A stretch of 64,000 nucleotides of DNA from Candidatus Forterrea multitransposorum CG_2015-17_Forterrea_25_41 (lineage in GTDB: Archaea; Iainarchaeota; Iainarchaeia; Iainarchaeales; CSSED10-239). Where the stretch lies: contig CP045477.1 in assembly GCA_009392915.1 (NCBI GenBank), positions 416,001 through 480,000 on the forward strand, read 5' to 3'. How positions within the stretch are numbered: position 1 is the first letter of the stretch; every line of letters starts with the position of its first letter. The position numbers were made by a program, and so were the translations under genes. Shown piece by piece: positions 1-10,603 of this stretch. Under the pieces are notes generated by a model. It saw only the letters and a list, made by a program, of their open reading frames with translations, was not told the DNA's origin and made no database searches.

Positions 1-140
1 GTTTTTTTACTAAATATATGTCTTAATAATCTACTCTTTCCAGAATTATTTCCACCTACAAAAATATTTAGTTTTGATAAACTATTAATAGTATCTGGAT
101 AACCTTCAAAATTTAATTTAATATTTTTAATTAATTCCAT
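1..140 (-). CDS. N-terminal fragment (approx 46 aa, truncated by window start) of an AAA_15/OLD-family-like ATPase. The ATG at 138-140 overlaps the hsdS stop codon.
   Basis: Reverse-strand translation MELIKNIKLNFEGYPDTINSLSKLNIFVGGNNSGKSRLL..., with a Walker A-like GGNNSGKS. The ATG overlaps the TAA of the upstream hsdS by 1 nt. Confidence 0.45.
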   Translation of the reverse strand, partial: MELIKNIKLNFEGYPDTINSLSKLNIFVGGNNSGKSRLLRHIFSKK

Positions 141-1432
141 TAATATTTCACCCTTATTTTTCCAGACATTAATTTAGGTAATAATAAATCTCTTATTTCA
201 GATAATTTCTTATTTTGCCTTTTATTTTCTGAAATTTTAATAAATGTACTTCTGATCATTGAATTATATTTTTTCAATATTTCATTTGATGGATTCAATA
301 TCTGTATTTTCTGAATGTTTTCATTATTAATTGCTTGCATTGTTGTACCATTACATAAGTTATTTTTTATTATTTCAAAATCATCATTTAATACAAAATT
401 CCAAATATAATACAAAGCATTTTCTTTTATGTCTAACCCAGCAAATCCAGTAGATAAAATTAAATTTTCTAATTCCCAAGCGCTATACTTATCAAAATAA
501 GTTATTTTTTTACTATTTTTCATTTTAGCAAACCACACTGTATTCTCTTTAGGTTGCATATTTGCTCTTGATGGTCTTTTTATAAATGTAATTTTAGTAT
601 TATAATTTATTATTTCAGAATTATCTATATCTGCAGTTGCAACATATGTTTTTTCATCAAAGTCTTCTGTACCAACCTTTGTAAAAGACGTTAGATTATT
701 GTCTCCTAAATGCCCAACATCCCATCCTTTAGGTATTTCTTTTTTTAATTCTTTATTATAAACCATTTCTCCTCCACTAGATTTATAAGGTTCTCCTTTT
801 TCATTTGGAAATTCAAAATCAACAAACCATCTTTTAAATAAAGTTTTTCCTATTTCTTCAAGTGTTTGATTCATTTTTCTGTTTAGTTCTATTTTTTCAT
901 CTAAATCAGAAAGGATTTTTGCAATTTTTAACATTTCATTATTATTTTTTGGAACTATAACTAGTAATTTTTTAATATCCCCTAAACTAAGTGTTTTTTG
1001 TGTAGAACCACCAACATTTTTTTCAATTTGATTTAAAATATATTTAGAATTTAAGGCATAATATAAAAAATAACTGTTTATATTCGGGTTAATTATCACC
1101 GTATTTTGCCCTAAACAAAATAATTCTGTTGTATTTACAAAACTTGTAATTCCATATGTTCCAACCCTAGTCATTATGATATCATTTTGCTTTGGGATAT
1201 AATTTTTAGTAAATTCATCATAAATAGATTTAGTAACTTTTAATGTATTTGATAAATCTAAACTACCTGATTTCACATCAGTTACTCTTACCATTGATAT
1301 TCCTTTATTAACATAAATTGGAGTTTTATGACAAGAATCAATAACTATAGATATATCATTTAATGATTTAACGTCCCAATCTTTAGGAATTAATCCAATT
1401 TCTGTTTTTTTAAATTTTATTTTATTAATCAT
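140..1432 (-). CDS. hsdS: Type I restriction-modification specificity subunit HsdS.
   Basis: 430 aa. Two target-recognition halves separated by a conserved central helix (KKLLVIVP...LDEKIELNRKMNQTLEEIGKTLFKRWFVDFEFP) and a C-terminal LLPKLMSGKIRV motif typical of HsdS. Sits in an operon with hsdM. Confidence 0.8.
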   Translation of the reverse strand: MINKIKFKKTEIGLIPKDWDVKSLNDISIVIDSCHKTPIYVNKGISMVRVTDVKSGSLDLSNTLKVTKSIYDEFTKNYIPKQNDIIMTRVGTYGITSFVNTTELFCLGQNTVIINPNINSYFLYYALNSKYILNQIEKNVGGSTQKTLSLGDIKKLLVIVPKNNNEMLKIAKILSDLDEKIELNRKMNQTLEEIGKTLFKRWFVDFEFPNEKGEPYKSSGGEMVYNKELKKEIPKGWDVGHLGDNNLTSFTKVGTEDFDEKTYVATADIDNSEIINYNTKITFIKRPSRANMQPKENTVWFAKMKNSKKITYFDKYSAWELENLILSTGFAGLDIKENALYYIWNFVLNDDFEIIKNNLCNGTTMQAINNENIQKIQILNPSNEILKKYNSMIRSTFIKISENKRQNKKLSEIRDLLLPKLMSGKIRVKY

Positions 1433-2400
1433 AATATTTCCAATTTATGTTCTGAATTAACAATTTCATAAAAATCATTAATATAAGTAATTATGTTTAA
1501 ATATATCGTATTATTTTTTACATCTGATACTTCTATGTGAGAAGTTATTTCAAAAATAGATCCTGTTCTTGTTTCTTCAGGAATATTAATATTCTCAGAA
1601 TACTCTAAAATTCTAAAATTTTTAATTTTAACTTTATCTTCTCCAATTTCAATTTGATTTAATTTAGACATATAATCATTAATATAACTTTTAAAATCAT
1701 ATGAATTGCTAAATTCCTCAATTGAATTAATAAAATTTTCTTCAGGATAAATATTATCTAATTTAATAAATAAACCATCACCTATCGGTTCTATAACTAT
1801 ATCTTTATTAAATAACTCTTTAAATTCTAATGCACAATTTTTATTAAATCCTAAATCCCTTGTAATTAAAAATACATTTTCATAATCATCAAAATCTTGA
1901 GATAATATTGTCTCCCATATCAAGGCATCTTTAAAACCAGAATCAGATTTTTTATCTTTATTAAAAGGAGACTTTTTTTCTAATGCTCTTATTTTTAGAT
2001 CATTAAATTTTTGAAAAATTAAATCATCAGAAATTTTTAAAATTTTTATTTTGTTTTCAAAAATATAATTTCCAATTTTATCCAAAATAAAATCTTTTAT
2101 ATTAAAATCATCTGAAATTTTAAATAAGTTAATTTTCGAATCAATATAAGCATATCTTTTTTTAATGTCACCTAATTTTCTGCTATCGGATTTAAAACAA
2201 TCTCTTCTTTGTTTTTCTAATTCAAATAAAGTTATATCTGTTATTGATAATTTAATATATTCAAACAAATTTTTTTTAAAAATATAATCATACAATTTTT
2301 TAAAATCATTATTAAATGTAAAAGTATGATAATAAATATTATCACTACTATTTTCTTTTAACACATTTGTATCAAAAATAATTATTGTTTTTGGCATCAT
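1429..2400 (-). CDS. PIN-like nuclease-domain protein (N-terminal approx 190 aa) with a C-terminal domain of unknown function.
   Basis: N-terminal IIIFDTNVL, plus downstream acidic residues including FLITRD (the hhTxD-type PIN motif). 4-nt overlap with both neighbouring genes. Confidence 0.45.
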   Translation of the reverse strand: MMPKTIIIFDTNVLKENSSDNIYYHTFTFNNDFKKLYDYIFKKNLFEYIKLSITDITLFELEKQRRDCFKSDSRKLGDIKKRYAYIDSKINLFKISDDFNIKDFILDKIGNYIFENKIKILKISDDLIFQKFNDLKIRALEKKSPFNKDKKSDSGFKDALIWETILSQDFDDYENVFLITRDLGFNKNCALEFKELFNKDIVIEPIGDGLFIKLDNIYPEENFINSIEEFSNSYDFKSYINDYMSKLNQIEIGEDKVKIKNFRILEYSENINIPEETRTGSIFEITSHIEVSDVKNNTIYLNIITYINDFYEIVNSEHKLEIL

Positions 2401-2879
2401 TTAAAATCAAATATTTTCTTTTTATTAGAATAATTAATTATTATTTTATATTTTAAATTGTTTTCTAAATTCATCTCTTTTTCAAAATTTTCTTTTGAAC
2501 TATAATTTAATTTAACTAATATTTTATCAGTGTGATTTGGTTGTAATAGAAATGGAAATATAACTGGTTTATATGATGGTAGAGGATAACTTGTTTTTAA
2601 ACCAACACCCAAACTTACAGATTCAGATACATTCAAATAAACTGAATTAGGCATAAATTTAGTTTTATTATGATATAATTCCATCTTCTTAATTGTAGTT
2701 GGTCTTTGACCAACATTACTTAAATAAAAATAAATCCAAATTTCATTTTCATCCATCTTAACTTCTAAAACTTCTTTTTCAACATATAATTTAGGTTTAT
2801 TTTTACTTTCTATATAAAAAGATAATAATATACCTAATATTGCAACTATTAAACCCAATATACTAATTATATATTCCAT
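2397..2879 (-). CDS. Small single-pass membrane protein with a beta-rich C-terminal domain, hypothetical.
   Basis: N-terminal hydrophobic helix ISILGLIVAILGILLSFYI. Overlapping start and stop with its neighbours. Confidence 0.4.
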   Translation of the reverse strand: MEYIISILGLIVAILGILLSFYIESKNKPKLYVEKEVLEVKMDENEIWIYFYLSNVGQRPTTIKKMELYHNKTKFMPNSVYLNVSESVSLGVGLKTSYPLPSYKPVIFPFLLQPNHTDKILVKLNYSSKENFEKEMNLENNLKYKIIINYSNKKKIFDFK

Positions 2880-3370
2880 TAGTTATCATTTTTCTTTTTA
2901 AACTTTCTAATTAATGCTAATAATAGTTCTTGTTTAAAAAATATTATACTTAGTAATTCTATACCAAAAGCAATATTTAAAACAACAGATAATTTAAAAT
3001 TATTAATTATTGTTTTGTAAATACTTATTTGACTATTTTCTATATTTTCAAATTTTTGATTTAAATTAGTTATTTGATACTGTATAATATTATAATCATT
3101 TTTTATTTCTTCAAAATCTTTTTTAGTTATATTTTCTGTTATTAATTTGTTATAGTCAGACTGACAATTTTTTAGTTGTGAACTAATCTGTATTATATTG
3201 TTATTTAATGTAATTTTATTTAATTCACAATTATTTAATTTATCTACAATAGGTTTACATTTATCCTCTGATAATAAACCAAACAATCCTTGTATAATTG
3301 GAATAAATATCATCACAATTATAAACACAACTAAAATACCTCCAATTATTGCAAATGGATTATCCGCCAT
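2879..3370 (-). CDS. Small membrane protein with two TM segments flanking a Cys-containing coiled-coil region, hypothetical.
   Basis: N-terminal TM helix (FAIIGGILVVFIIVMIFIPII), a Q/N/K-rich heptad-like middle region, and a C-terminal hydrophobic segment. Start lies 2 nt after the hsdM stop. Confidence 0.4.
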   Translation of the reverse strand: MADNPFAIIGGILVVFIIVMIFIPIIQGLFGLLSEDKCKPIVDKLNNCELNKITLNNNIIQISSQLKNCQSDYNKLITENITKKDFEEIKNDYNIIQYQITNLNQKFENIENSQISIYKTIINNFKLSVVLNIAFGIELLSIIFFKQELLLALIRKFKKKNDN

Positions 3371-3372
3371 AT

Positions 3373-4890
3373 CTATTTCACCTCAAAGCCGATTCCTTTA
3401 AGATTTTTCTTAATCTCTTCTTCTAATTTCTTAGATTCTTTAAATTGTTCGCTTAATTCTTTTGTAAGGCGAGTCATCTTTTCTTGAAAAACTTCAGGAT
3501 CTTCCTCTTCTTCCTTAAAACCAACGTAACGGCCAGGTGTAAGAATAAAGTCTTGCTTTTCAATCTCTTCAAGAGAGGCTGATTTACAAAAAGAAAGCTC
3601 ATCTTGATAACTTTTTTTGTTTATCGGGTCTTTTGACCTCCAAAGAGAAACAGTTTCTGAAATTTTTGTAAAATCTTCTTCAGTGAGTTCTCTTTGTCTT
3701 CTGTTAATCATTTGTCCAAGATTTCTAGCATCAATAAAAAGAGTTTCTCCTTTTCTATGTGCAGGTTTATTTCTATTAACAAACCAAAGACAAGCAGGAA
3801 TCATTGTATTATAAAATAATTGAGATGGAAGAGCAATAATACACTCTACAAGATCATCTTTAAGTATATTTTTTCTAATTTCTCCTTCTCCAGAAGTATT
3901 AGAACTTAAAGAACCGTTTGAAAGAACAAAACCAGCAATTCCTTTAGATCCTAAATGATAAATAAAATGTTGAACCCATGCAAAATTAGCGTTCCCTGCA
4001 GGAGGAACTCCATATTTCCAACGAGCATCCTCTCTTAATAGATCTCCAGACCAGTCTGAATCATTAAAAGGAGGATTTGCAATTATAAAATCAGCTCTTA
4101 AGTCTTTATGTTCATCATTTAGAAAACTACCTTCATTATTCCAAACAACTTTATTATCAATACCTCTTATTGCAAGATTCATTTTACATAATTTCCAAGT
4201 TGTTTGATTAGATTCTTGACCATAAATAGATATTTGACCTATTTTTCCACCATGTTTTTCAACAAACTCTTCAGATTGAACAAACATTCCTCCAGAACCA
4301 CAACAAGGGTCAAATATTCTTCCTTTAAAAGGTTGTATTATTTCAACTAATAATTTAACAATAGATTTAGGAGTATAGAATTGGCCTCCTTTTTTTCCTT
4401 CAGCAGAAGCAAATTGTCCTAAGAAATATTCATATACTCTTCCTAAGATATCTTTACTATTATCTTTAGAATTAAAAGAAATTGTTCCTATAAGATCAAT
4501 TAACGCTCCTAATTTTGTTTTATCTAAAGATGGTTTTGAATAATCTTTTGGAAGTATTCCTTTAAGTGTTGGATTTTCTTTTTCAATTAAATCCATTGAA
4601 TCATCAATAATTCTTCCAATTTCTATATTTTTTGCATTATCTTGAAGATATTCCCATCTTGCTTTTTTTGGAACATAAAATACTCTTTGAGAGACATATT
4701 CATCTTTATCTTCTGGGTCTGCATATTCTTCTTCTTTTAGTTTAGTATATAGTTCTTCAAAAGAATCAGATATATATTTTAAAAATATTAAACCTAAAAC
4801 TACATGTTTATATTCTGCAGCATCCATATTACTTCTTAATTTATCTGCTGCTTTCCAAAGCTTTTCTTCAAATCCTAAATCTTGAGTCAT
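3373..4890 (-). CDS. hsdM: Type I restriction-modification N6-adenine DNA methyltransferase subunit HsdM.
   Basis: 505 aa with an AdoMet motif ([10 protein letters not shown]) and the catalytic NPPF ([12 protein letters not shown]). N-terminal HsdM_N-like region present. Confidence 0.9.
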
Positions 4891-4960
4891 AATTAATCTC
4901 TTCTTTTATATAAATATAATATACATCTAAACACTTTTAAAGGTATTATGTATTAAAAAA

Positions 4961-5347
4961 CTATTCAAATCTAATCTCTTTTCTATCATCTTCTATTGCT
5001 TGTTTTATTTTATTATATTCTTCTTCACTTAACTCTATTATATTACTATAAGTATAATCTTCCTTTGCAAGCTTAAATCTTTCTTGTAAAGAACGTGCAC
5101 CAAGACCTTTATTAGATAAAAGTAATAAAGAAAGTTTAATCTGATAAGGATATGGTTTTTTCCAAGAAGTAAATTCATTGTCTACTTTTTTAATAACTTT
5201 AAATATTCCAAAAATTACTCCTTGACCATAATATACAATAATATCATCTAAATTAACTAAATCTCTTTCATTTTTGTCTATAAAACCACAATATTCTTTT
5301 GTTTTAACAAAAGATTCCCAAGAATGGTTAATTAAGTAATATTTCAT
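4961..5347 (-). CDS. EVE-like (PUA-fold) domain protein.
   Basis: 128 aa. Pattern MKYYLINHSWESF ... DDIIVYYGQGVIFGIFKVIK ... PYQIKLSLL resembles the EVE consensus (YWLxK..P..F / GDLxFFYHS..IVGIAEV). Lies 70 bp upstream of hsdM on the same strand. Confidence 0.4.
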   Translation of the reverse strand: MKYYLINHSWESFVKTKEYCGFIDKNERDLVNLDDIIVYYGQGVIFGIFKVIKKVDNEFTSWKKPYPYQIKLSLLLLSNKGLGARSLQERFKLAKEDYTYSNIIELSEEEYNKIKQAIEDDRKEIRFE

Positions 5348-5349
5348 TT

Positions 5350-6729
5350 TTAATCATATCTAAATCCATATTTTTCAGTTAATTTTTGCCATTCATCATG
5401 ATATTTTTTCCATTCATTATATTCAAATTCATCTAATACCTGGCCAGAACCATAACTATCTAATTTATTTTGCAAAAATTTTAATCTCAAATTATCATCA
5501 TATTCTTCTTTAACACTTTCAAAAGATTTACCTTCAGAAACAACATAAATATTTGGCTTTGAAATTAATTTACCTACTCCAATATAATCTCCATCACTAT
5601 CTGTAATAATACTTGGAGTTGTTGTTTCTATAAAACAATAACCAGAATTATTATAAGAATATTTAATTGGGCATTTTAATCCTATTGAAGCATGCTGCTC
5701 TAATTCAAAACTAAAAATTGCAACACCATAACCTAACTCTTTTAACATTAATGCAAGTAAATTTGTTTTATCCCCACAAACTCCTGTTTGATCATATAAT
5801 GTTTCATAAGCATATCTATTACTATAATTATGATTAAAAGAATCCCAATCATAAGGCATTGTTTGAACTAAACTGATTGCAATCCTTGCTTGATCATCAG
5901 TATTATTTGTTATTTTTTTAATTTCATTAATTAATGGTAGAATATATCTTTCTTGATCTTCAGTATTAACATACATTAATGACATATATTCAGAAGTAGG
6001 AGGAGATTCATAAGAAGAATAAGTTACTGTTCGAGGTAAATTTGACAAATAATAATTAAACCCATTATAGACAGTGTAATTAAAACTATTAGGTACACCT
6101 CTTAGAGTATAATTTAACTTAATTGGCTTAGGTTCAGTTTGCAATTTATGTAAACACTTCCCATTAATATAAATTTCATCTATATCACATAAACATTTTT
6201 CAGGAAACTCAATTAAATTACCTTTCTGACAAAAATAAGGCTTAATATTTGAACAATTATTATATAAAGTACCATCTTCACACCTATTAATAACAAAATT
6301 AAATAATAAATTCATAATTATATAAATTAGAATAATAATAATAACAATATTTCTTAATTGTTTAAATCTAATTTTTTTAAGTAAATGAATAACTAAAGTT
6401 AAAATTAAACTATTTAGTAAAATTATTATAAAAAAGTTAAAACTAACCTTTAATAATAGATAATTAAAACTTAATAAAATAATAACATAAACTAAAGTCC
6501 ATATAAATAAATAAAAATTAAATCTAAATTTATTTTTATAAATTATAACAGTTATTATGCGTGAAAATAAACTAAATATGATTGCTATAAATACTAATTT
6601 AGTGGTATTATTAACAATATTTAATAAATTTAAAAATAAAGAAGATAAATAATATAATAGACTATAAATTAATATCCAAAATAGAAACCAGTAAGATTTA
6701 TAAAATCTAAAAATATTATTATTTCTCAT
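5350..6729 (-). CDS. Membrane-anchored protein with a Cys-rich ectodomain and a transglutaminase-like cysteine protease core.
   Basis: First ~140 aa are multi-TM, followed by a Cys-rich segment. The C-terminus carries GVCGDKTNLLALMLKELGYGVAIF...EQHASIGL...GYCFIETT, which resembles a transglutaminase-like C/H/D triad. Confidence 0.4.
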   Translation of the reverse strand: MRNNNIFRFYKSYWFLFWILIYSLLYYLSSLFLNLLNIVNNTTKLVFIAIIFSLFSRIITVIIYKNKFRFNFYLFIWTLVYVIILLSFNYLLLKVSFNFFIIILLNSLILTLVIHLLKKIRFKQLRNIVIIIILIYIIMNLLFNFVINRCEDGTLYNNCSNIKPYFCQKGNLIEFPEKCLCDIDEIYINGKCLHKLQTEPKPIKLNYTLRGVPNSFNYTVYNGFNYYLSNLPRTVTYSSYESPPTSEYMSLMYVNTEDQERYILPLINEIKKITNNTDDQARIAISLVQTMPYDWDSFNHNYSNRYAYETLYDQTGVCGDKTNLLALMLKELGYGVAIFSFELEQHASIGLKCPIKYSYNNSGYCFIETTTPSIITDSDGDYIGVGKLISKPNIYVVSEGKSFESVKEEYDDNLRLKFLQNKLDSYGSGQVLDEFEYNEWKKYHDEWQKLTEKYGFRYD

Positions 6730-6746
6730 TTTATCACATTAATATT

Positions 6747-7028
6747 TCAATGTCTTTTTTTAATTGATCTTTTAGAAATATTAGAACTTCTATATCTTAC
6801 AGGTTTACTTTTTCTATAAGAATCTTTTAAAACAGAATCACTTTCATTTTTTAAATCATGAATAGTTGGTTCTTTATAACCTAACTGCTTTAAAGCAGAA
6901 TCAAATATCTTTGTAAAGCTTAAGTTATTCTCTTGTACAAATCTTTCTTGACTTTTTGTAATTCTCATATTTATTCTTATATTTCTTCTTTCTGGAGAAG
7001 TATCTCTTTTTACATCTTCTATATTCAT
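6747..7028 (-). CDS. Small ribbon-helix-helix-like DNA-binding protein (start taken at the internal Met, MNIEDVKRD...).
   Basis: A beta-strand (IRINMRITKSQ) followed by two helices. Basic C-terminal tail. Confidence 0.3.
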   Translation of the reverse strand: MNIEDVKRDTSPERRNIRINMRITKSQERFVQENNLSFTKIFDSALKQLGYKEPTIHDLKNESDSVLKDSYRKSKPVRYRSSNISKRSIKKRH

Positions 7029-7164
7029 ATAAATCAATCCCTTAAATACACTTTTCCCAATCAAGAGCATAGTGTATATACAACTTTGACACAACGAGTT
7101 TATAAATAGATCGATTACACTAAAATATAATAAAAAGAGAAGATTAAAAAATAAATCTTATCTA

Positions 7165-7890
7165 CTAAACTTTAATCTCTATTAAAACAGGATTATGGTC
7201 ACTAAATCTTCTAATTTCATCATTTTCAAGAACTTTGCAAGAAATAATGTTTTTAAAAATAGGTTTATTCATAAAAAAGTAATCATTTTGCCACTTAACT
7301 TTACTTTTTTTATGTCTTAAGGTCTGTACAGGATATTCTTTATCAGTTAAATCAAAAGCATCAAAAAAATTAAAATCTTTTAATCTATCAAAAAAAATCT
7401 TATGAGAGTTATTATATTTATATATTAAATCAAATTGAATACTTGCATTTAAATCTCCCCCCAATATAATATTTCTTTTACCATTAAGTTTACCATAAAA
7501 CAAAGGAGATAAATCAGATAACATGCTATGTAGATTAGGAATTGAATAACCATCTGTCATAAGACCATATAATGATATAAAAGTAAGTTTTTTATTATTT
7601 ATAACAGTATTTGCTATTGTTAAAGATCCATTAAATTTAGTATTTATTGTTTCCTGAGAAAGATTGTATTTTTTACTATAAATTCCAGATCCCCAATTAC
7701 GATTTTTATCAATTTTATTCCAAATAAGATTTGAATCTTTTTTAATATGTTCAGGAGGATTTGATTCTTGAAATAAATATATATCTGCATCAATATTATT
7801 TAAAAAATAATCCCAAATATCTTTATTTAGCTTTTTATTTTTCCAATAATCCATATTCCAAGTAACTATTTTAATATTCATTCTTATCAA
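7165..7890 (-). CDS. Endonuclease/exonuclease/phosphatase (EEP) family protein.
   Basis: N-terminal KIVTWNMDYW (TWN motif) and C-terminal RFSDHNPV (SDH motif), both characteristic of the EEP fold. Confidence 0.7.
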   Translation of the reverse strand: MIRMNIKIVTWNMDYWKNKKLNKDIWDYFLNNIDADIYLFQESNPPEHIKKDSNLIWNKIDKNRNWGSGIYSKKYNLSQETINTKFNGSLTIANTVINNKKLTFISLYGLMTDGYSIPNLHSMLSDLSPLFYGKLNGKRNIILGGDLNASIQFDLIYKYNNSHKIFFDRLKDFNFFDAFDLTDKEYPVQTLRHKKSKVKWQNDYFFMNKPIFKNIISCKVLENDEIRRFSDHNPVLIEIKV

Positions 7891-7898
7891 TTTTTATT

Positions 7899-8738
7899 TT
7901 AAATAACCTTCTTAATATTCTTTTCCAAGTAAACAATAAACTTATCTTTATTCTTTCCTTTTAACTTTTCCCAAGAATTATATACTTTTCTTATTTTATC
8001 TTCTAAAATAATATCTTCTTTATCATTATATCTGTATCTTGCATATTTTTCTTTATTATAACCTAACTTATATGCTAAAATATTTTCAATAGTAGATGTA
8101 AAAGTTTCACTAAATGACTGCTTTTTTATTCCACCATATTTATCTAAAATATATTTTTCAATTCTATTATATATTTCATTATTTGAATTAATTACATGAA
8201 TAAGTTCATGAATTAATAAAATATATATTCTATTTTTAGTAAATTTTCTATAATCAACATCATCTCCTATAGATATATGAAAAGATAAATTTGTTGCAGA
8301 ACCTCCAAAACCAGGCCTTGTATTATTTGCAACAAAGAAAGTAGAGCTTACTTTTGTAGAATTATAAATAACATCTAAATAAGGTTTAATTATTTTAAGT
8401 TCTTTCTCTTTAAAATTAGTTATAAATGTATTTAGAAAATCTTCTGATTTTTTATTAATAACAATAGGAAATAATTTTTTTAAAACAATTAGATGTTTTT
8501 TTTCAATATTACTTAATTTTTTTTTATTAACAATATTATCTATTAAATTTTTGTAATTAAGCCTATTTGTAGAAATAATACTATAATCTTTATTAATCAA
8601 AAAAATTAAATCTACCATTTCTTTTAATTGATTTTTATTAGCAAAAGTATAAACTTTATCAATATTACAATATGCTTTACAAGCAAGTCTTAAATCTTTT
8701 GAAGGTTTTATTAAGTTTAGTTTAATATCAACACTCAT
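7899..8738 (-). CDS. Hypothetical protein with a HExxH motif (possible zincin-like).
   Basis: LLIHELIHV motif. Start lies 8 nt upstream of the EEP gene. Confidence 0.3.
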   Translation of the reverse strand: MSVDIKLNLIKPSKDLRLACKAYCNIDKVYTFANKNQLKEMVDLIFLINKDYSIISTNRLNYKNLIDNIVNKKKLSNIEKKHLIVLKKLFPIVINKKSEDFLNTFITNFKEKELKIIKPYLDVIYNSTKVSSTFFVANNTRPGFGGSATNLSFHISIGDDVDYRKFTKNRIYILLIHELIHVINSNNEIYNRIEKYILDKYGGIKKQSFSETFTSTIENILAYKLGYNKEKYARYRYNDKEDIILEDKIRKVYNSWEKLKGKNKDKFIVYLEKNIKKVI

Positions 8739-8805
8739 AAAGATATCTATTAAATAAAGGTTTTTTAAAAGTTATGTTTAATAAGGAGCTATCATAAACT
8801 AAAAA

Positions 8806-9147
8806 TTAAACATTTACCCAAATAACACAACCTTTCTTATGAACGTAAGGTTTTGGAGAAGAATATCTTTTGATATCAGACAATACCCAAGCATGAGGAT
8901 TATTATATTTTAAATCTAAAACATCTTCTTTCTTTATTTGATGCTTTTCTAAGTTTTTAAATAAAATATCTTTGTTAATTTTTATTGAATCTTTAATAGT
9001 ACATTCACCATATACTTTTTTGCTGCCACTCATAATAAGAGCAATTCTTTCACCAATCTTTGAAGTATTAAAGTTTCTTATCTCCCAAGTCTTTTTTCCT
9101 TCTAAGATTAAATTTAACCATTTTTCTTTAATTATAAGGCCTTTCAT
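8806..9147 (-). CDS. ASCH domain (PUA-like) protein.
   Basis: 113 aa. KEKWLNLILEGKKTWEIR ... GERIALIMSG ... GECTIKD matches the ASCH pattern (K..w...i.sG.KtvE.R...gd.i.l......vvg.a.i). Confidence 0.6.
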   Translation of the reverse strand: MKGLIIKEKWLNLILEGKKTWEIRNFNTSKIGERIALIMSGSKKVYGECTIKDSIKINKDILFKNLEKHQIKKEDVLDLKYNNPHAWVLSDIKRYSSPKPYVHKKGCVIWVNV

Positions 9148-9244
9148 AAAAGATATCTATATTTCAAAAGGCTTTTAAACTCTTTTATGTAGTAATTAAA
9201 CTATTTATTAAAAAACAAAAATATATCTTAATTAAGATGATAAA

Positions 9245-10603
9245 TTATTTATCAATAACTTTCCAATATCCTGCTTTGTCTGAACCTATTCTTTTTATCT
9301 TCTTTTGCTCTTTTAATATTTTTAAATATCTTTCAATAGTCTTTGTACTTAAATTAAATTCTGTTGCCATTTGAGCATAAGTAACTTTATTATTAGCTTT
9401 AATTAATTTTAATATTTTTACACCGACATTTACACCGACATTTACACCGACATTTACACCGACATTTACAGTGTCTTTTACAGGTGCATTTACACCGACA
9501 TTCATAGTAGATTCTATTATTTTTTGTCTTTTAAAAACAATACAAAACCAATCAGTATCTATATTAAACTTAACACTTGGAAAAAGTTTTTTTATTCTTT
9601 TAATACCAGAACCAATCTTTTCAATAAACTCTGTTCTTTGTAAACAACCTGCTAAAATAGGATTTCTTAATATACTTACTTTTCCAAAATCTTTTGGACT
9701 AAAAAGAAGTTTTCCTGGATTTAATATTTCAACTCTATCTTCATACACTTCTACCAATATTCTTCCTTGAACAAAATAATCTCTATGAATCATGGCATTT
9801 AGTACTGCTTCCCTTAAAGCAGCCTCTGGTATTTCAGGGGTTTCAACTCTTCTTAAATTAATAATATCAGCCCGTGTTTTTGTATTTCTTAGGATAAATA
9901 ACACAGCATTTTCAAAATTTGATAAAAAGTCAGATTCAAATACTTTTTTATCAAGCATAACAGCCTTAGTATCTCCTTGGTATAAAACACAACTAATATC
10001 TGCATTTAAAAAGAATTTAGTAATTCTTTTTGAAAATAATAATGCACAGGCATTATTTGGAATATCATTTGTTAAAAGATTTAAATTTTTTAAAATATGC
10101 TCTTTTGATAGAGTTGTTGAAAATTTTGCTTTTTTTCTATATTTAAGAAATTTAGTATTATCTATATCTTTAAAATTAAATGAAGAAGTTTGTTTTTCAA
10201 AAGAAATTTTATTTTCGTTTTGTAAAAAATCAATAATTTCATTTCTATCTAGCTTTTGAGAGTTAGCACCTTGCCTTACATAAAAAGAACCACCTACTAA
10301 ATATGGTTTATCTTTTCCTAAAGGAACATATATTATACCAATATTATCTATGATTTCAAAATTAACAACTAAAGAGGGATCTATGTTTCTTGCAATTGTT
10401 TGTACTTCAGAGGAAAATCTATTGTTTATAGAAATACCTTTTATTTCTCCTTTATCTGTAACTCCTAAAAGAATTTTACCTCCATCTGAGTTTGCAAAAG
10501 CACAAATTGATTTTCCAATTTCTTTATGGTTTAAACTTTCTTTAAACTCAAGAGTATATCCTTCTCCTGTTTTTATAAGATTAAGTAAGTTCTTTTTATC
10601 CAT
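9245..10603 (-). CDS. AlbA_2 (Schlafen-like, formerly divergent AAA) + HATPase_c_4 + C-terminal wHTH putative transcriptional regulator.
   Basis: N-terminal LLNLIKTGEGYTLEFKESL...ICAFANSDGGKILLGV, a mid EAVLNAMIHRDY motif, and a C-terminal wHTH (TIERYLKILKEQKKIKRIG). Confidence 0.7.
   Translation of the reverse strand: MDKKNLLNLIKTGEGYTLEFKESLNHKEIGKSICAFANSDGGKILLGVTDKGEIKGISINNRFSSEVQTIARNIDPSLVVNFEIIDNIGIIYVPLGKDKPYLVGGSFYVRQGANSQKLDRNEIIDFLQNENKISFEKQTSSFNFKDIDNTKFLKYRKKAKFSTTLSKEHILKNLNLLTNDIPNNACALLFSKRITKFFLNADISCVLYQGDTKAVMLDKKVFESDFLSNFENAVLFILRNTKTRADIINLRRVETPEIPEAALREAVLNAMIHRDYFVQGRILVEVYEDRVEILNPGKLLFSPKDFGKVSILRNPILAGCLQRTEFIEKIGSGIKRIKKLFPSVKFNIDTDWFCIVFKRQKIIESTMNVGVNAPVKDTVNVGVNVGVNVGVNVGVKILKLIKANNKVTYAQMATEFNLSTKTIERYLKILKEQKKIKRIGSDKAGYWKVIDK
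9421..9504. repeat. 12-bp tandem repeat (CACCGACATTTA): four perfect plus three degenerate copies, in frame inside the regulator CDS (encodes the (VNVG)n linker).
   Basis: Read directly in the sequence: caccgacattta x4, followed by cagtgtctttta, caggtgcattta and caccgacattca. Confidence 0.85.

Follow-up and report, generated by a model that had tools for sequence, protein, structure and literature searches.

Which genes do two small membrane proteins of the archaeon Candidatus Forterrea multitransposorum CG_2015-17_Forterrea_25_41 belong with? The genes for these proteins, here called A and B, lie next to each other and directly upstream of a gene for a PIN-domain nuclease, in a stretch of 64,000 nucleotides (nt) of the genome (contig CP045477.1, positions 416,001 to 480,000 of the forward strand; hereafter the window, whose positions are counted from its first letter). 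An original prediction, made from the sequence, paired A and B with the nuclease and was silent on the hsdM and hsdS genes in which the three are set. We found that the two small membrane proteins are encoded by independent genes, both embedded in a Type I restriction-modification (R-M) operon of a DPANN-type archaeon with a small genome. Both families have R-M as their recurrent partner: Type I hsdM and hsdS, MmeI-like, Mrr and HNH genes, and other methylases.

Restriction-modification genes as neighbors of A and B

All three genes, A, B and the nuclease gene, which is of the PIN_12 (DUF4935) family, are enclosed between hsdM and hsdS on the minus strand of the window. The order of the whole operon is an open reading frame (ORF) of 128 amino acids (aa), hsdM, A, B, PIN_12, hsdS, an OLD-like ATPase gene and hsdR. 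From hsdM through hsdS the genes run on the same strand with junctions of 0-4 nt. The original prediction had start and stop codons overlapping at both ends of the A-B pair. This holds between A and B (TAATG, stop and start sharing 1 nt) and between B and PIN (ATGA, a 4-nt overlap), and fails at the start of A, which is set off from the hsdM stop codon by a 2-nt spacer (TAG-AT-ATG). The PIN/hsdS junction is also a 4-nt ATGA overlap, and hsdS meets the ATPase ORF at TAATG. A and B are, as had been proposed, small membrane proteins in a defense context, tightly packed with a nuclease gene and probably translationally coupled.

The two ORFs stood up as drawn, at their positions on the minus strand. 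Homologues of A fall into five clusters (36-100% identity) and those of B into six (48-100% identity), among them proteins at 36-54% identity to A and at 48-64% to B. Between B and an orthologue that is 92% identical, the ratio of nonsynonymous to synonymous substitution rates (dN/dS) was ~0.35, a value that comes from few substitutions; the ratio was 0.42 for PIN and 0.125 for hsdM. Because each has clusters of homologues, and because of the dN/dS of B, we conclude that A and B are real, conserved genes and not chance ORFs. When a profile of the B family was compared with 1.84 billion representative proteins, only 15 clusters were found at an expectation value (E) of 1e-3 or less, all of 95-173 aa. 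Both families are rare (5 clusters for A and 15 for B), and they occur almost exclusively beside restriction or defense genes. Named members of the B family all come from archaea ("archaeon", Candidatus Iainarchaeum sp. and a Nanoarchaeota metagenome-assembled genome). The loci are all AT-rich, with 22-33% guanine plus cytosine at B loci.

We compared gene neighborhoods of 14 distinct B loci and five A loci, with the window counted in both (Table 2). A restriction gene adjoins A in each of the five loci, and these genes represent two Type I families, Mrr and HNH. B occurs with Type I genes in six lineages, plus one in which a remnant of hsdS is left; in addition, B adjoins an MmeI-like gene at one locus and has methylase genes near it at two others (L015 and L020). 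Beside distant members of the B family we found ABC-3C three-gene systems, consisting of a CTD10-like protein of 162-171 aa, MC6 and a DUF2326 ATPase (L015, 8540-11178; L019, 3245-5740; L021, 2215-3404).

These comparisons also bear on the explanation closest to the original prediction, that A, B and PIN_12 are one three-gene abortive-infection module in which the membrane proteins sense, signal or permeabilize together with the cytosolic PIN protein. The three genes are indeed joined by stop/start overlaps, and the PIN neighbor was identified correctly: the 323-aa protein matches Pfam PF16289 (PIN_12/DUF4935) above threshold (44.3 bits against a cut-off of 32, profile positions 1-172), and its active site is intact, with the acidic residues D10, E60, D158 and D182 invariant in three orthologues. 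The order B-PIN recurs in L017 and in the diverged locus L004, whose B and PIN proteins are 55% and 40% identical to those of the window. Nevertheless, PIN_12 adjoins B in just 3 of the 14 distinct loci (the window, L017 and L004), two of them near-identical lineages (the window and L017), so that B has no PIN neighbor in 11. PIN stands beside A in the window lineage alone, that is, in none of the four other A loci. In L017, B and PIN are kept while A is replaced by unrelated genes; in L004 the Shedu gene sduA takes the place of A; and in L006 a non-homologous gene of 267 aa sits at the PIN position. PIN is also absent from L001 and L008. Given this co-occurrence pattern, weak for B and negative for A, the claim that PIN is the specific partner of A and B is not supported, and we consider a three-gene module improbable. 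PIN_12 is one swappable cargo gene among several. It has no match in PADLOC-DB v2, and no relatives were found on plasmids (tblastn) or in IMG/VR viral contigs (pattern scan). According to an earlier description (PMC5499597), DUF4935/PIN_12 genes are usually monocistronic, and their function is unknown.

Table 1. Features of the R-M operon in the window, listed from upstream to downstream
Feature	Position	Strand	Remarks
128-aa ORF upstream of hsdM	4961..5347	-	Apparent framework member of the operon
hsdM, Type I R-M methyltransferase, 505 aa	3373..4890	-	Pfam N6_Mtase E 3.9e-111, HsdM_N E 1.1e-27; PADLOC MTase_I E 2e-217
Shine-Dalgarno-like GAGGTGA	3378..3384	-	Within final hsdM codons, 7 nt before the ATG of A
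Protein A, 163 aa, two predicted transmembrane helices around a helical hairpin	2879..3370	-	Exchangeable cassette
Protein B, 160 aa, predicted N-terminal transmembrane helix and Ig-like beta-sandwich	2397..2879	-	Behaves like a framework gene of the operon family
PIN_12 (DUF4935) nuclease, 323 aa, C-terminal domain uncharacterized	1429..2400	-	Pfam PF16289 E 3.3e-11; swappable cargo
hsdS, Type I specificity subunit, 430 aa	140..1432	-	Pfam Methylase_S E 3.7e-17; PADLOC Specificity_I E 4.9e-92
AAA_15/AAA_21 ATPase, first 46 codons with Walker A GGNNSGKS, cut by window edge	1..139	-	Full gene of 627 aa in L023/L024

Table 2. Gene order at loci of the B family and of the A family (TM, transmembrane)
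Locus	Genes in order
B family	
Window	hsdM, A, B, PIN_12, hsdS
L017	hsdM, 93-aa TM protein, 63 aa, B, PIN_12
L004	hsdM, Shedu SduA, B, PIN_12, hsdS, 407 aa
L006/L007	hsdM, 176-aa A-like, B, 267 aa, hsdS, 706 aa, hsdR
L001	128 aa, hsdM, DUF3800, 219 aa, B, hsdS, 292 aa, hsdR
L008	354-aa TM, 130-aa TM, B, hsdS
L009	385-aa protein of unknown family (weak mad4 match, E 0.0014), B, ORF opening with hsdS codons
L011	MmeI-like Type IIG enzyme, B
L015	PDDEXK_1, B, 63 aa, ABC-3C (CTD10-like, MC6, DUF2326); C5 methylase and reverse transcriptase nearby
L021	VRR-NUC-like, AbrB/MazE-like, B, ABC-3C
L019	ABC-3C, GNAT, B
L020	B, CopG-like, N6_N4 methylase
L012	B solitary, in an integrase-bearing element
L022	B, neighbors uninformative
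A family (besides the window)	
L010	hsdM, A, AAA_15 ATPase; no B before contig end
L025	EcoEI-type hsdR, 58 aa, hsdS, A, probable hsdM start
L026	Mrr, A
L027	HNH (divergent), A

The part of the operon beyond the window edge was read from two public assemblies of the same genome, L023 and L024. There, hsdS is followed by the 627-aa ATPase gene (L023, 12740-14623), then by hsdR and then by a 214-aa ORF. The ATPase combines AAA_15/AAA_21 with an OLD-like Toprim domain, and its Pfam and PADLOC matches include AriA, GajA, Old and HEC-01A. Thus, between hsdS and hsdR the operon holds a second embedded gene of defense type. The hsdR product (1018 aa) has the domains HSDR_N, ResIII and T1RH-like_C. 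At the other end, the 128-aa ORF has no match in Pfam, NCBIfam or PHROG. It is 74% identical to an equally placed ORF in L001, within a block of 78% nucleotide identity that includes hsdM, and it seems to belong to this Type I operon family as one more conserved, unnamed gene.

Upstream of the operon, the region from 5350 to 10603 (minus strand) resembles a wider defense or variable island. It encodes a TM protein with a weak transglutaminase-like core, an Exo_endo_phos-like protein, an ASCH-domain protein and a 452-aa ORF. Between L023 and L024 (2277-7530), two positions differ in gene call or Pfam assignment: 452 aa against a 444-aa SLFN_AlbA_2/HATPase_c_4 protein, and 321 against 459 aa.

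Exchange of cassettes around B

Nucleotide comparisons indicate that genes have been replaced on both sides of B. The window and L017 are 92-94% identical through hsdM to its stop codon (window 3374). Identity resumes at window 2899, 20 nt before the ATG of B, and continues through B and PIN to the start of hsdS. The intervening A segment (window 2900-3373, 474 bp) corresponds to 454 unrelated bp in L017, which encode a 93-aa protein with three TM segments and a 63-aa ORF. L010 and L007, similarly, share 94% identity as far as the hsdM stop codon and are unrelated beyond it. Against L001, L004 and L006 (67-92% nucleotide identity), the genome of the window aligns only in the 128-aa ORF plus hsdM, in B, in the conserved central and C-terminal parts of hsdS, and in hsdR; A, PIN, the recognition domains of hsdS and the ATPase gene did not align. 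L004 and L006 show the identical mosaic pattern when compared with each other.

The operon family thus has a conserved framework, consisting of the 128-aa ORF, hsdM, B, the hsdS core and hsdR, and three cargo slots, one between hsdM and B, one between B and hsdS, and one between hsdS and hsdR. Unrelated genes are exchanged in the slots, with the hsdM stop codon, a site shortly before B, and the start of hsdS as breakpoints. In the last slot, unrelated proteins of unknown family are encoded at three loci: 292 aa in L001, 407 aa in L004 and 706 aa in L006. A is a swappable cargo cassette with a recurrent restriction link of its own. B behaves like a framework gene that is retained while the flanking genes swap: conservation of its DNA goes with that of hsdM, the hsdS core and hsdR, and the genes on either side of it are exchanged.

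How could a newly arrived cassette be expressed? The final codons of hsdM (...TTTGAGGTGAAATAA; window 3373-3392) and of hsdS (...AGGGTGAAATATT; 140-160) contain a Shine-Dalgarno-like motif, and the start codon of the slot gene follows the end of hsdM or hsdS by 0-3 nt (junctions in L001, L004, L006, L007, L010, L017 and L023). Five different first-cargo genes have their start codons 0-3 nt from the hsdM end ...GGNTTTGAGGTGAAATRR: A, the 93-aa TM protein, DUF3800, SduA and the A-like protein. We infer from these junctions that the 3' ends of hsdM and hsdS are built-in expression sockets for whichever gene occupies the slot.

There are also signs of movement of B itself. L011 and L008 share 78% nucleotide identity that is limited to the B gene, and because the identity covers this gene only, B has also moved as a single gene between loci. 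In L008 the 5' end of hsdS has been copied: a 40-nt direct repeat (37/40; 1711-1750 and 2580-2619) brackets the 130-aa TM gene plus B, and the copy opens the 130-aa gene upstream of B. In L009 (1994-2040), the ORF after B opens with the N-terminal codons of hsdS and then diverges into an unrelated 227-aa protein. The repeat and the ORF are traces of recombination where hsdS begins. In the window (1-5400) we found no meaningful direct or inverted repeats at the borders of the cassettes, just AT-rich noise, and we rejected an integron-like or repeat-flanked cassette model. It is more likely that cassettes are exchanged by homologous recombination between framework genes.

Predicted architecture of A and B

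The original prediction gave A two TM helices flanking a Cys-containing coiled coil, and this description holds. Hydrophobic peaks are at residues 8-26 and 127-145 (Kyte-Doolittle), cysteines are at 38, 48 and 69, and an AlphaFold (AF2) model, of low confidence (predicted local distance difference test, pLDDT, 56), places a hairpin of two helices (35-78 and 83-125) between the TM helices. The model was too poor for a fold search. In an alignment of five homologues, C38, C69 and the motif N80-I-T-K-K-D85 are invariant, and the motif is at the predicted tip of the hairpin. Within this stretch (ENITKKD), N-I-T is an invariant sequon of the N-glycosylation type. The family also has a conserved acidic residue in or near the second TM helix and a C-terminal tail rich in K and R. 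Because of this tail, A is probably oriented N-in/C-in, with the hairpin, its two invariant cysteines and the NIT sequon outside.

The 176-aa A-like protein that precedes B in L006 is a distant homologue of A (hhalign 93%; hmmsearch 4e-8) that keeps the motif as QNITEKD and has no Cys. In L008, B is preceded by a 130-aa TM protein that has no homology to A. It seems that A is a separate, restriction-linked membrane sensor or effector that sometimes precedes B and is not needed by it.

B is, as first described, a single-pass protein with a beta-rich domain. It has one TM segment at the N terminus (residues 3-21) and no Cys. The AlphaFold model, made with a six-sequence alignment and of good confidence (pLDDT 84.4; predicted TM-score, pTM, 0.69), consists of a helix (2-26) followed by a beta-sandwich with nine strands of at least 3 residues. 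Neither family is recognizable as a known, housekeeping or other, family: A has nothing in NCBIfam and no Pfam match above threshold, and its sole match in PADLOC-DB v2 is of the coiled-coil type (JetC, E 8.6e-4); B has nothing in NCBIfam or PADLOC-DB v2 and matches Pfam only below threshold.

Flanking charges suggest how B sits in the membrane. In all 20 of the 20 TM-bearing family members there are 0-1 K/R residues before the helix, in an N-terminal flank of 0-13 residues (for example, ME, MNE or MIDTGS), and 2-6 among the 15 residues that follow. According to the positive-inside rule, the immunoglobulin (Ig)-like domain is probably cytoplasmic (N-out/C-in). The helix has 11 invariant positions in six close members, and the residues at positions 9, 13, 16 and 20 are small throughout the family, which suggests a face for helix-helix packing or oligomerization.

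A cytoplasmic domain on a membrane anchor raises the possibility that B is a non-toxic tether or adaptor, whose Ig-like (ASH/MSP/PapD-like) domain would recruit the R-M complex and nucleases to the site of DNA entry. The uniform predicted topology is consistent with such a role, as is the co-divergence of B with the hsd genes. The cytosolic nucleases encoded next to B are of several folds (PIN_12, SduA_C, PDDEXK_1 and VRR-NUC-like), which would provide candidates for recruitment. Matches to PF22544 (HYDIN/CFA65/VesB-like Ig; ASH/PapD-like) were found in 6 of 19 family members. These matches are weak (best E 0.0013; 15.5 bits for the window protein, below the cut-off of 25.5), and the likeness of fold is merely generic. 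The conservation of the TM helix exceeds what a passive anchor needs, and a single adaptor for so many unrelated partners would be unparsimonious. We place the tether between unlikely and rather doubtful.

It is also conceivable that A and B are ordinary cell-envelope proteins, pilin-like or otherwise at the surface, that reside in the operon by chance and have no role in defense. The top Foldseek match of B in the PDB is an archaeal type IV pilin (8fk7; E 5e-4, TMq 0.38), and an archaeal pilus subunit (8q30) was matched as well. Like B, these proteins have an N-terminal hydrophobic helix and an Ig-like beta-sandwich. The TM-scores are low (0.38-0.45), and we rejected the identification of B as a type IV pilin on two counts: B has no class III signal peptide (it lacks both a positively charged leader and a K/R-G/A cleavage motif), and its K/R residues are clustered after the helix, a charge bias opposite to that of a pilin. 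There are no pilus-assembly genes nearby, and both families are almost confined to restriction or defense neighborhoods. An envelope role is, in our view, very improbable. We also rejected superoxide reductase (NEQ011, PDB 6gq8), a weak profile match of B (E 0.019 over 46 residues). The His/Cys iron ligands are absent; B has no Cys, and the family alignment has no invariant His.

Probable membrane accessories of restriction

Genes that act as accessories of R-M, and are wired to it, are known. In the Ronin system of E. coli, RonA, a TM protein of 61 aa, is toxic alone, is neutralized by HsdMS and is triggered by Ocr or ArdA (bioRxiv 10.1101/2023.04.06.535777). In the logic proposed for Ronin, the R-M methyltransferase complex restrains a membrane effector that is freed when anti-restriction proteins strike, and by analogy the same could apply to A and B, which are likewise predicted membrane proteins whose genes are tightly linked to hsdM and hsdS. 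RonA is an experimental precedent for one part of the original prediction, small membrane proteins as effectors of the Abi type, here inside hsd loci; the other part, PIN as the specific partner, is not supported. A and B are set apart from RonA by size and architecture: RonA has one TM segment and no folded domain, whereas A has 163 aa and two TM helices and B has 160 aa and an Ig-like domain. In addition, the host here is an archaeon, and Ronin loci mostly lack hsdR. PrrC is latent on EcoPrrI and is activated upon inhibition of restriction (PMC12707154). The anticodon nucleases PrrC and RloC resemble A and B in their embedding: they are accessories inside the hsd operon, kept latent by the restriction enzyme and conserved with it. 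In contrast to A and B, membrane proteins with no enzymatic domain, they are cytosolic fusions of an ABC ATPase and a nuclease.

Based on the neighborhoods and the predicted TM segments, we infer for both A and B an accessory role in restriction or defense that is exercised at the membrane. That they are R-M-embedded membrane accessories of an antiviral defense operon, with a logic like that of PrrC or Ronin, and not sensors for PIN, seems to us to have somewhat better than even chances. For B, the role that we rank first, still tentatively, is that of a latent effector or guard, the membrane arm of the restriction machinery, which would be held by the R-M complex and would act on the membrane once restriction is blocked. 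A more doubtful version is that Type I R-M systems of DPANN archaea, and some other R-M systems there, have in B a hitherto unrecognized fourth component, anchored in the membrane, that physically couples restriction to it. As such, B could station the enzyme and plug-in nucleases at the entry site of foreign DNA, or could serve as a membrane-permeabilizing fail-safe upon inhibition of R-M, with the hsdM and hsdS 3' ends acting as expression sockets for exchangeable cassettes such as A and PIN.

Several points weigh against reading A and B as accessories of R-M. Most A contigs and several B contigs are 1-3 kb long, with only the immediate neighbors visible. The Type I loci of B share orthologous hsdM genes (74-94% identity), and the six may go back to one ancestral embedding rather than to independent associations. 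Distant B members in L019 and L021 (with ABC-3C) and in L012 (the integrase element) have no visible R-M gene, which fits an autonomous function better than one bound to R-M. Topologies of both proteins were assigned by the positive-inside rule alone. A, B and PIN have no homology to tested defense proteins in PADLOC, the JetC match of A being of the coiled-coil type. The operon has an hsdR gene, unlike most Ronin loci. Finally, B seems to be distantly related to phrog_4989, a phage family of unknown function.

The last point and the loci without R-M genes lead to a further explanation, that B is an autonomous membrane protein, derived from mobile elements, that blocks entry of foreign DNA or superinfection and hitch-hikes in defense islands with no partner. 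Small, N-terminally anchored superinfection-exclusion (Sie) proteins of prophages offer an analogy. Among the B family, 15 of 19 members match phrog_4989 at E 0.01 or less (best 1.7e-10; PHROGs have no curated threshold). The B protein of the window does so at E 7.4e-6, with only residues 3-81 aligned to profile positions 10-88 of 173. Fold matches of B in BFVD are uncharacterized phage proteins of 170-200 aa (E down to 7e-6, TM-scores 0.47-0.56). The phage proteins resemble B in size and build, with an N-terminal TM helix and a beta-sandwich, and differ in that the window B aligns over its N-terminal half only. The highly varied neighbors of B, its single-gene movement and its solitary position in L012 point the same way. 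On the other side, searches for relatives in GenBank phages, plasmids and IMG/VR contigs found none (tblastn with B, P0019 and P0025 against phages and with PIN and B against plasmids; five IMG/VR pattern scans). Because these sequence searches were negative, the phage link of B comes from the PHROG profile and the BFVD folds alone. A cytoplasmic folded domain, as predicted for B, would be unusual for an entry blocker, and retention in the framework, with co-divergence of hsdM, hsdS and hsdR, suggests more than hitch-hiking. We consider an autonomous B rather unlikely, and continue to prefer for B the role of a latent effector or guard that is held by the R-M complex.

The embedding itself has precedents. 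Location inside Type I R-M, BREX, DISARM or Hma systems predicts a defense function, many of the genes so placed have turned out to serve in defense, and candidates found in this way have been named HEC and PDC (Payne et al., bioRxiv 10.1101/2024.01.29.577857). As with the HEC/PDC candidates and the rlo genes of Campylobacter, varied cargo lies here between hsd genes on the same strand, and an ABC ATPase is found together with PIN, as in HEC-01/03/04. The rlo (R-linked ORF) genes were reportedly described in Campylobacter hsd loci by Miller and colleagues in 2005. In contrast to the HEC/PDC candidates, A, B and PIN match no HEC or PDC model in PADLOC v2, and B looks like a conserved part of the framework and not like swappable cargo. 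Thus, accessory and defense genes embedded in R-M operons, small membrane effectors included, are already known; the families A and B are not. Unusually, an archaeal Type I operon here has in B what looks like a conserved fourth or fifth component, with cassettes exchanged around it at codon-exact borders.

Genes embedded in R-M systems are a proven source of new antiviral systems, and restriction enzymes are wired to back-up suicide effectors, as is seen from R-M "guardians" such as PrrC, PARIS and Ronin. Immunity in archaea, and especially in the DPANN group, is poorly charted. If B is merely embedded cargo, then A and B are two families that join the list of candidate defense genes, a useful but ordinary addition. 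If B does link restriction with the membrane, Type I restriction would gain a spatial or membrane layer, and the operon family would be a compact and testable model of modular, plug-in defense operons.

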